Source: Podarcis vaucheri
Taxonomy: Eukaryota
NCBI GenBank assembly: GCA_965113315.1
Contig: OZ220363.1
Direction: 5' to 3' (one strand)
Length of the DNA: 64,000 nt
Made by a program: the position numbers and the translations under genes
Shown: positions 50,691 through 54,624 of the stretch, piece by piece
Position numbering within the stretch: position 1 is the stretch's first letter
How the letters are laid out: each line of letters opens with the position of its first letter
Notes under the pieces: generated by a model
The model's database searches: none
Seen by the model: only the letters and a program-made list of their open reading frames with translations
Told to the model about the DNA's origin: nothing

Positions 50691-51974
50691 GTAGGCACGA
50701 TAATTAATGTAAGGCAGGCACACTGGCTTGTTCCTGCGATTGAGGGGGCCGGTGCTCCACGACATGCTCACACTTTGTGCACATGCTGTGCAATATGCTG
50801 ATGTGTCGCATGCACATTATGTGGCATACATGAGTGATGTGAGTGTGGCATGAGCACATGGCATGAGCACATCACTGCAAAATATTGATGAGGCCCAGCC
50901 CCCTCCTTGAAAATTGCAGAGGCCCTCGGCCCCTTCTAGGTGACACCCCTGATGTAAGACATAAACTTGTATGAGAATGAATTCTGAAACTTCTTATTTA
51001 AAAAAAAATGACATAAATGACATCCTAATTGCAAAAAGAAACCGCTGCCCATCGTTATGGGATTGAGCCTCCTAGTTAAATAGCTGTGATGCATTGCTTA
51101 CATAATAAACATAGTTTTTGGATGGCTCACATGGCTTTATACTGGCTGAAATTGACATGACAGCAATTGAGCTAGCTGGGGTATAAATGGAAGATGATTT
51201 CAGATTCTATCTGCCTCCTGCTTTCAAGTTCATTTCTGATTTTACTCTCTACCTCAAAATATGTGGAAAATGTTATTTCCTAGAGGAGTGCTTAAGGTTC
51301 ATAGATTAAGTAGATTTCTTATCATGCTTGAGTTATTTTTAATTCCTCCTTTTATTTCATTCTTTGATATTATTATTCAGAGTTTCCTATTTTAGCATTC
51401 AAAGCCTGTAGCCAGCCAGTGGATTCCTGTGTTATCTAGTGCCAGAATTTAATCAGATAATTCTTCCTCACTTGTATTAAAATCTGTGAAAGAGCTTTTG
51501 TCTCCATAGACAGCTGTCCATAATGACAAAGAAAAAGTTCATCATAATTTTGGCTACCATATTTCAGTTTCATCAGAAAACGTATCCCATACCAAGTCTG
51601 CTTTAGATTTCCTGCATAGGGATGAGGAACAAAAATACCACCAGTTTGCTACTGGCCCTGGAGGGGGAAAAATTATTAGTGTTTATTCAAATAAAATCTG
51701 TCAACATACATATAGTATAGTGCATGTATTATGGAAATGTAATATGAGTATGTTTAATTACAAATTATACATCTGTGTTGAATCTGATAGACCTCATTTG
51801 AAACCTAAAATATAAACAATTCACATGCTAGATGAAATATGAATTCACAATGCTGCCTCTTCAACTAAAACCTGTAGATGGAATGGTACTCCATTCATGG
51901 ATCGTGGCATTCCTGCCTTCTCTATATAACACCCTGCACCTCCCTGGAAATCCACTCTTAAGGACTGGCTAGGC

Positions 51975-52110
51975 CAGGCACCCCCAAACTCTGCCCTCCA
52001 GATGTTTTGGGCCTACAACTCCCATGGTCCCTAGCTAGCAGGACCAGTGGTCAGGGATGATGGGAATTGTAGTCCCAAAGCATCTGGAGGGCCAAGTTTG
52101 GGGGTGCCTG
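51975..52110. mobile_element. hAT-type palindromic MITE (same family)
   Basis: CAGGCACCCCCAAACT ... AGTTTGGGGGTGCCTG perfect 16-bp TIR; more degraded relatives near 57420-57520 and 59968-60098. Confidence 0.87.
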
Positions 52111-52383
52111 GTAGGCTCTCTGGTACAGAGTGAGATGTGACATAGGAACCTGCAGCATGACATGGAAATAATAAAAAACCCAATCCCCCTTGTGCAAGCC
52201 TCCTACCCAGCTACATCTTTGCAGCCTTGCCAATCTTTCTAGGACCATTGCTGTCAGACTTTGGATTCAAAATCAAAGGCTGGATATTTATCAGATGATC
52301 TAGTTTCTAGACTATTTTTGTTTTTTTAAAAGCATTTTCTTAAAAAGCTTCTTTCTTCACACTAATTCTTTGTGTGTTTTCAG

Positions 52384-52490: not shown

Positions 52491-53123
52491 GTAAGTGACT
52501 TGGTTTGCGAAGTCCCGAATTAGCAGTCAGTGGTTGGGATTCAGAGAGGTCCACTTAAAACACTTCTTGGTATGGCTGGGACTGTGCTGATTTTCAGCTT
52601 CTAGTTGCAGCACTTCATACTGATGAATGCCATTCCAAGCAGTATCTTTAGGAGTAGCTTTTTAATGTGCATAAGGTACCATGGTAGCAGTGGAAATGGG
52701 GTTCTTTGGATTCTGGCCATTAAGTTTCTGCAAATATTAAATACATCTCTTTTTTGGGGCCTGCTTCTCTTCTCACTGTTTTTGACTGTCTTTGTGGTAC
52801 CACTTCTAGTTATAATAGAATGAGTGGCAGTAGAGTTAAAGCCAAATATTTATTGATTTAAACATTATATGTATTTTGAATGTTCATCATTGGTATAATT
52901 TAGCAGTAAACCATGGCTTAGCGCTATGGAAACGAGACTCAGCATGACTTGTACTCAAATGCAGTCACTGTCTCTACTCTTTGTTTAGCTGCAAGGAAGG
53001 GATTGGCAGCTTCCATTTCTGTTTTAGCTTAACAGCAGTTTTATGTGTTGTCCCGGTTCTAAACTGTGGTTAATTAGAACAGTGAAAATAAGGCTGTGTC
53101 AATTTAATTTTTTTTGTGTTAAG

Positions 53124-53233
53124 GTCAGGAGCTGATAATGCAACTTTGTGTCGAGCATTAACTGAGTATGCAAGGACTTGTGCTCAAGCAGGAAAACCTC
53201 TCCACAACTGGCGGGCCCAATTTAAGGAATGTG
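53124..53233 (+). CDS. OTOG: Otogelin exon 11, C8 domain ([36 protein letters not shown])
   Basis: 110 nt, AAG/GTATG, phase 2->1; its last 74 nt are duplicated at 53848-53921. Confidence 0.94.
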
Positions 53234-54016
53234 GTATGCAATGACAAGGTTTTAGAATGCTGTCTTCTGGCAAAATATTCTGCATATCGTTTATTCCCCT
53301 TTCTGCAGGTTTTCTCATTTTTAAATATAGGTTCATCTGGCCTTGCTATGGACTTCGTTGGTTGCCTGTTTTGTAATGGGGGCCTGGTAGGAATTTTTCC
53401 ATCTGGCAAATTGGCAGGGCCATTTGGTTTTCAGCTACCACCATAGCAATCGTCACAACTTTGTAAGGTTTGGCTGTTAGGCATTGGATCAGCAATCATG
53501 GGGAGGGGAGGTGGAGCCATCACCTGCCCCTCCAAGCTCAAGGGTATTCCATTAAAGAAATCTAGGGATTTGCCTGGGTCTTGTCCGAAACCCCTGCAGA
53601 GGGGGCTAGGGCCATACCAGGGCCCCACAGGGACACCGGGGATGAGCGCCAGTCAGGACCTGCTGGCGGTGCTCCCTCTGGTGTTGTTCATCCTTTAAGG
53701 GATTCTCCGTGATGATGTCAATGCCTAAGCCAATACCATTCACATTCTGTATTCAATAAAGTTGTGGCCTAAATTTTGCCCAATTACTTAAACTAAAATC
53801 CCGTGTCACTGTTTCATTTTTTGGGGAACTGGGGGGTCTCGAATCGCAACTGAGTATGCAAGGACTTGTGCTCAAGCAGGAAAACCTCTCCACAACTGGC
53901 GGGCACAATTTAAGGAATGTGGTATGCAGTGACAAGGTTTTAGAATGCTATTTTCTGGCAAAATATTCTGCATATCGTTTATTCCCCTTTCTGCAGGTTT
54001 TCTCATTTTTAAATAT
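53160..54016 (+). repeat. 169-bp direct duplication (53160-53328 = 53848-54016) flanking a 519-bp insert
   Basis: Gap-free alignment at offset 688 with 4 mismatches. Confidence 0.96.
53329..53847 (+). mobile_element. Inserted sequence, probably the 3' end of a retroelement (family unassigned)
   Basis: Bounded exactly by the 169-bp duplication; more GC-rich than the flanks; AATAAA at 53755; no long ORF. Confidence 0.6.
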
Positions 54017-54192: not shown

Positions 54193-54318
54193 TCATTAAA
54201 TGTGAGGAGCATCTTGTCTACAATGAATGCATTGACTGCTGCCCAGTTTCATGTCAGCAAAAAACTCACTGTGTTGACAGTGAACTGCCCTGTGTTGATG
54301 GATGCTATTGTCCAGATG
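54193..54318 (+). CDS. OTOG: Otogelin exon 12, TIL domain ([41 protein letters not shown])
   Basis: 126 nt, CAG/GTAAT, phase 1->1. Confidence 0.96.
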
Positions 54319-54624
54319 GTAATGCAGTTTTTGGTGTGGAATTTTGTTAGAAGTTGTGGCCTTTCAGGAGCTTATGGTCTTTCTGCAATCTACTAGACAC
54401 AGTAATTAAGTCACACTCCAGATATTTGTCAACAAAACCAGATGGGTTCATTCTAGAGGCAATGGGTGGTATTCAACTAACATTTCCTGTCAATACAAGG
54501 ATTTCCTCTTGTGCAATAGAGCTTTCCTCTCTTCTCTTGTTCCTATGCACATTCTCTGCCTTTTCTAAGTCTGCTACGGAGAGTTGGAGGAGCCCCCAGA
54601 GCAGATTCTATGAACGAGCTAGAC

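Follow-up and report, generated by a model that had tools for sequence, protein, structure and literature searches.

A 3' fragment of a Ngaro tyrosine-recombinase (YR) retrotransposon lies within a gene of Podarcis vaucheri, between two copies of a 169-bp stretch of host DNA. The duplication starts exactly at the AA core of the element's normal right end; the left end of the element is truncated. Nine loci in this genome bear the same signature: eight in this orientation, and one in mirror image. We favor an origin in one-ended integration (probability about 0.6), in which the recombinase would have joined one end of the element, and host repair would have copied the empty target before joining the broken end.

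The duplication and its junctions

The window is the whole 64,000-nt stretch of DNA that was analysed, and all positions refer to it (Table 1). Its self-comparison aligns the two copies without gaps over 169 bp, with four mismatches and with 519 bp separating the copies. The mismatched positions (copy 1/copy 2) are 53217/53905 (C>A), 53241/53929, 53262/53950, and 53264/53952. The flanking duplication had been proposed in the original prediction, with the same length, mismatch count, and spacing, and it is confirmed both by this comparison and by contigs of related organisms. The boundary proposed for the insert is refined here: AA at 53848-53849 provides the first two bases of copy 2 and also the last two bases of the element. 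Copy 1 begins on the target AA (53160-53161). Copy 2 contains, as had been noted, the last 74 nt of the exon and an identical GTATGC donor at 53922, and lacks an acceptor.

Table 1. Features of the duplicated region, in window coordinates
Feature	Position	Strand	Remarks
Intact coding exon	53124..53233	+	AG at 53122-53123; C8 domain of VWF/mucin-family gene
Copy 1 of duplication	53160..53328	+	last 74 nt of exon, donor at 53234, 95 nt of intron
Left junction	53328..53330	+	target joined to element interior with 1 nt shared; ~25 nt past A-repeat end
Ngaro 3' piece, 521 bp (spacer and B repeat)	53329..53849	+	lacks first ~250 bp of solo A-spacer-B end; AATAAA near 53756
Right junction	53848..53849	+	canonical Ngaro 3' end; AA core common to element and target; assembly only
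Copy 2 of duplication	53848..54016	+	orphan 74-nt half exon, donor at 53922, 95 nt of intron
Next exon	54193..54319	+	normal GT..AG splicing, RNA contig X17

Twenty sequencing runs from seven studies contain all or part of the stretch; 7 of the 24 runs listed were examined. Contigs from three related organisms (B, C, and E) cross the left junction, that from C without a difference, and a contig from organism D ends exactly at 53328. Organisms B and E each display both continuations past the repeat: into the insert, and into the downstream intron. One organism E contig links copy-1 letters (53950 G) to 39 nt of the insert, and in a second the copy-2 letter (53950 A) runs on into the downstream intron. 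Run X1 contains 221 bp of the window's insert at 100% identity. The right junction is known from the assembly alone, because no contig in the five DNA-type runs covers it; the gaps there (53837-53872 and 53790-53847) in themselves prove nothing. An empty, single-copy allele was not seen in the seven runs examined. The flanks of these organisms differ from the window by ~1.4-2.6%, and the event therefore predates their split.

The exon remains intact

The exon at 53124-53233 matches the Pfam C8 domain (E 2e-8) as well as VWF, mucin, and FCGBP chains. The original prediction called it exon 11 of OTOG, a plausible name; homolog search with the next exon and an atlas search returned no gene name. 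RNA contig X17 (organism E; 12,238 nt; from a run guessed to be RNA) contains the whole exon, with the copy-1 letter, spliced GT..AG to the next exon. The splice joint aligns at 53920/53921 and 54192/54193. X17 is a contig, and contigs drop rare forms; none of the listed runs containing the stretch is recorded as RNA.

The original prediction placed one junction inside the coding exon, with the upstream copy keeping that exon whole. This arrangement is borne out, and the relative's RNA contig is spliced normally. The further suggestion that the orphan half exon might be exonised finds no such support. Five pyrimidine-rich candidate acceptors (AG) lie upstream of the donor at 53922, and the exons they define, including both frame-keeping ones, contain two to nine stops each. 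Exonisation is unsupported because every candidate cryptic exon has stops and the sole RNA contig has normal splicing. The event looks silent for the gene.

The duplicated intron piece (53295-53309 and 53983-53997) also contains a strong acceptor-like site, and the left junction generates a further AG at 53329-53330. Exons beginning at either site would contain stops.

The insert is a Ngaro end

The insert is the 3' end of a Ngaro YR retrotransposon, and not a LINE product. When the insert was compared with its own genome, 40 of the 5303 candidates that were scored yielded 44 matches. Most copies reach ~250 bp further in the 5' direction, and so make up a ~785-bp unit with fixed ends. A family search for the tyrosine recombinase gave 65 matches in the genome, and in 28 of the 30 YR loci fetched the insert matches sequence downstream of the YR ORF: B and then spacer, where both were seen. 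Identity to the spacer and B of these 28 loci is 72-87% across blocks of 50-230 nt. Among the loci examined, the insert's own subfamily has no full-length element.

Eight of ten longer regions contain split direct repeats in the arrangement A1-ORFs-B1-A2-spacer-B2, with A of ~214 bp and B of ~430 bp. Of the remaining two, one has the B pair only and the other a single B. The ORFs are ordered between the repeats as follows: A1, gag-like, RT, YR, hydrolase-like ORF, B1, A2, spacer, B2. In one such element (L061), matches were found to RVT_1 (E 5e-14) and Phage_integrase (E 6e-7), and the R, H-x-x-R, and terminal Y motifs are visible. ORF4 matched GDSL lipase in three of four cases scanned, all more weakly than the curated cut-off (E 0.005-0.011), and no methyltransferase domain was matched in the three RT ORFs scanned. 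Split direct repeats constitute the Ngaro plan, as laid out in PMC9210276 and PMC8547959. Because the longer regions follow this A/B plan, the 785-bp unit is a solo A-spacer-B end, of which the window keeps the last 521 bp.

The B|A junction of young elements reads CACGC-AAA-GCGTG, and these elements end in CGC-AA. The 5' core is AAA in 46 of 59 instances, and 3' ends finish in AA, with the third 3' letter biased by the search pattern. In all three young elements evaluated (L061:7015-7095, L062, and L063), the sequence across the B1|A2 junction forms a hairpin that spans the core and is mismatched there (+ strand z -3.2 to -4.9). The hairpin is stronger on the + strand.

Other identities were considered and rejected. 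A solo LTR of an ERV is rejected on the lack of TG...CA ends and of a 4-6-bp target-site duplication (TSD). A LINE or Penelope identity is rejected on locus matches, repeats, and ends, all of which place the insert within Ngaro YR elements.

The genome contains 4,589 exact matches to a B-repeat motif along with many intact YR ORFs, and some elements are 99.7% identical to each other. This near-identity and the intact ORFs indicate that Ngaro was recently active here. In six of the 21 long young elements examined (L431, L433, L434, L435, L436, and L070), a single B is accompanied by one A start 5.9-6.8 kb upstream; this A-ORFs-B arrangement complements the solo A-spacer-B form. A young composite Ngaro family (L077, L079, L083, L084, L146, L157, and L161), also abundant, has rearranged pieces upstream of B and the same 3' end.

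Ordinary copies, and recurrence of the signature

Ordinary Ngaro copies lack a TSD. Both ends were located for 19 old copies, and in all 19 the best end-to-end match is 2-6 nt, which is the chance level; no TSD was detected in the young solos and long elements examined. A long TSD as the family norm is accordingly rejected, and 169 bp is not the TSD of the Ngaro family.

Distinct terminal 3' ends (302 in all) were then screened for upstream recurrence of the sequence that starts at AA. Nine have such a recurrence and 293 do not. One of the nine was dropped: L388, a full solo within a 54-bp repeat, occupies the centre of a tandem repeat (three copies of 51 bp) that lies in an inverted Ngaro copy, an arrangement that mimics a 54-bp TSD. 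At the other eight, window included, the target from AA recurs upstream, flush against a 5'-truncated element. The duplication lengths are 169 bp (window), 63 (L203), 37 (L228), 120 (L352), 93 (L424), 104 (L286), 21 (L288), and 82 (L289). Excluding the window, the frequency is 7/301 (2.3%, interval 0.9-4.7%), with lengths of 21-120 bp; an unbiased run of 97 contig-1 loci gave 1/97 (0.03-5.6%). Control offsets yielded 5 matches in 2037, in three loci, all of them other repeats. Six duplications begin at the first A, and in two the match extends 1-2 nt further; that of L289 is ragged in its first 6 nt. Long duplications are therefore present at other copies, as had been considered, but only at a minority of ends, so that they represent a recurring side route and not the normal way in which Ngaro elements insert.

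The signature is unevenly distributed: 5/30 ends in one subfamily, 1/27 in the window's subfamily, 1/55 and 1/95 in others, and 0/95 in the young family, in which 21 long elements re-examined also were without it. The 5/30 contrast has P 0.0006, which rises to 0.011 when the two cases behind the subfamily search are left out. It was noticed after the fact, and is inflated because two of its five cases led to the search for that subfamily.

Among 14 copies classed as 5'-truncated, only two (the window and L228) have a duplication. Automatic classification labelled 31 of the 97 contig-1 loci as truncated; this figure is unreliable, as many of these are short solos of unsampled subfamilies. L286 and L289 retain the end of the hydrolase ORF together with B, and therefore end at an internal B1|A2 junction.

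The reverse arrangement was sought from 143 5' starts, 29 of which have no normal 3' end nearby, and one true mirror case was identified. This element, L019, has a normal 5' core and is truncated at its 3' side after ~190 nt; 102 bp of upstream target are repeated up to the core. The other two of three mirror matches (L064 and L103) are B1/B2 repeats and were set aside, as was L439, a simple repeat. The ratio of eight forward cases to one mirror case is no measure of polarity, because the samples were picked by 3' motifs.

At the truncated junction, homology with relatives is 0-1 nt in five aligned cases, with a short T filler in one, and ~3 nt in L288. The independent truncations at window position 53329 and at L424:998 coincide at one homologous base, which lies immediately 3' of a C-rich tract. 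Three further copies (L003, L249, and L278) start within ~10 nt of this base and have no duplication. This shared base near the C-rich tract is possibly a site of breakage or pausing.

Origin of the duplication

One-ended integration draws on the identity of the element, its canonical right junction in the assembly, the core-anchored start of the duplication, the 0-3 nt of homology at truncated junctions, the recurrence, and the mirror case. The hairpin over the B1|A2 junction and the matching anatomy of one-ended retroviral integration (PMC5041404) also favor it. The recombinase would act at the AA core, exchanging strands with an element DNA that was broken or incomplete (perhaps single-stranded and folded), and one chromatid would keep a break. 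The other host end would then be trimmed, would invade the empty sister or homologue, and would be extended past the core: in the window by 169 nt, taking in the remainder of the exon and the splice donor, and across cases by 21-169 nt. Once released, the extended end would be ligated by end joining to the truncated side of the element. For a duplication to begin at the core, an empty template is required. A clean insertion at AA would break the exon, so presumably only a self-repairing outcome could be fixed. The original prediction had offered two mechanisms, templated break repair and widely staggered nicks in target-primed reverse transcription (TPRT). Templated repair fits; staggered nicks do not, given the Ngaro YR identity, the lack of poly(A), the end at the recombinase core, and the mirror case.

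Divergence bears on whether this happened in a single step. The insert differs from its nearest sampled relatives by 6-10% (non-CpG), and the duplicated copies differ from one another by 2.4%: four differences, against ~8-14 expected (P 0.09 to 0.002). The element may be older than the duplication, its close kin may be unsampled, or the copies may have been homogenised. L203 and L228 have the same divergence gap as the window, and L352 and L424 have no such gap. The order of the junctions, moreover, is not timed by the sequence, and later exchange with an empty allele would give the same one. Two further counts weigh against a single step: the young family, in which recent products ought to be most readily visible, has no case, and only two of the 14 copies classed as 5'-truncated have a duplication.

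The most probable alternative is a two-step history. First, the YR would have inserted an element at AA in the normal way and so broken the exon. Then, with filled and empty alleles still segregating, a break within the element would have been joined illegitimately to the empty allele at a point 169 bp downstream of the core, removing the 5' part of the element and restoring the exon. This sequence of events predicts the same structure, both polarities, and short homology, and the 0/95 of the young family fits if time is needed. It demands, however, a null allele of a conserved gene as its intermediate, and by itself leaves unexplained why five of 30 ends in one subfamily have the signature, against 1/27, 1/55, and 1/95 in mostly older groups (the contrast being inflated, as noted above). 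We consider two steps unlikely, yet well worth keeping in mind.

The remaining explanations fare worse. A tandem duplication might have come first, with the element entering its second copy and the remainder later deleted. L388, with its full solo in a pre-existing tandem repeat, illustrates how a long TSD can be mimicked in this way; nevertheless, three events per locus would be required at nine loci, each leaving the repeat flush with both element ends, and organisms B, C, and E, all with the same left junction, display no longer precursor. This order of events is highly improbable. So is TPRT in trans, to which we give even less credence: a LINE or Penelope enzyme would have copied Ngaro RNA at nicks 169 bp apart. 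An intact 3' end with 5' truncation is the usual polarity of TPRT and occurs in eight of the nine cases, and PMC9977147 reports LINE TSDs that reach 126 bp and more. The polarity count, however, is biased by 3'-motif sampling, and the mirror case, albeit single, has the opposite polarity, so that truncation is not confined to 5' ends. Moreover, there is no poly(A) or repeat tail; the element ends in CGC-AA like normal Ngaro ends; and all eight ends stop at the YR core, ~75-95 nt past AATAAA. Finally, a false haplotype duplication in the assembly, raised originally as a possible objection, would accord with the lack of the right junction among contigs of the five DNA-type runs. It is contradicted by organism E, in which one contig carries copy 1 with the insert and a different one carries copy 2 with the downstream intron; the left-junction contigs of B and C and the 221 bp of insert in run X1 also speak against it. 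Such an artefact is barely conceivable.

One-ended integration can be extended, tentatively and at odds somewhat below even, to a broader proposal. Ngaro half-insertions might form a recurring class, each with one recombinase junction and a core-anchored duplication of 20-170 bp on either side. They might be fossils of an integration route that proceeds by single-strand exchange from folded single-stranded cDNA and is resolved by replication, with failure rates specific to subfamilies. Perhaps tens of copies exist in this genome, and an insertion of this class into an exon would rescue its own gene.

Comparison with known systems

The parent elements resemble known members of the Ngaro superfamily (order DIRS), notably the SGNH-bearing type such as Xenopus DIRS-53_XT (PMC9210276) and those with solo AB repeats (PMC8547959), in their split direct repeats and solo ends. 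They also share the gag-like, RT, and YR ORFs and, putatively, the hydrolase-like ORF, and ordinary copies lack a TSD in both (PMC9210276, PMC8547959). By contrast, the window's piece is truncated and lies between 169-bp copies of host DNA whose duplication begins at the recombination core, an arrangement not described in the available text of these two papers.

The closest parallels in outcome come from elements with other enzymes. One-ended integration of HIV-1 and ASLV (PMC5041404) likewise yields one normal enzyme junction, another end that is often truncated and joined by the host, and an oversize host duplication. Those events involve a DDE integrase and linear double-stranded DNA, and are provoked in culture by drugs or mutations (PMC5041404), whereas here a tyrosine recombinase is concerned and the products are germ-line and fixed. 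TSDs of 111 and 250 bp at HERV-K(HML-2) elements (PMC5488345) are, similarly, rare germ-line long duplications where short is the norm; these are LTR elements with an integrase, however, and their baseline TSD is a few bases rather than none (PMC5488345). Duplications above 100 bp also accompany rotifer R9 (126 bp) and Chlamydomonas Dualen-4b (median 900 bp), where they arise through staggered TPRT nicks as a regular or majority outcome (PMC9977147). By contrast, they occur here at ~2% of ends and without TPRT marks.

DIRS-1 uses a trinucleotide core at its circle junction, on which its YR acts (PMC7192593). It differs in having inverted repeats and an ICR, and the available text of PMC7192593 does not mention truncated insertions with long duplications. 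Integration of YR retrotransposons is still a model: a double-stranded circle is proposed, yet DIRS-1 cDNA in cells is mostly linear and single-stranded (PMC7192593). By analogy, such linear single-stranded cDNA would supply broken substrates for one-ended integration.

Ngaro elements, solo ends, long TSDs, and one-ended integration are all already known. Within the literature searched, what is new is a core-anchored duplication at a YR retrotransposon: the available text of that literature, including PMC9210276, PMC8547959, and PMC6681497, holds no description of long or core-anchored duplications at such elements. Failed insertions record integration steps, and a start at the core base fixes the position of the host-strand cut. 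Any good assembly allows the forward-to-mirror ratio, the lengths, and the junctions to be tallied, which opens the integration question to computational tests. Moreover, an element class defined by the lack of a TSD can make long local duplications, including pieces of exons and splice donors, and such repair can turn a gene-breaking insertion harmless.

Elsewhere in the window, the upstream intron contains a small hairpin-type repeat, a pair of 59-nt inverted repeats at 51974-52111.
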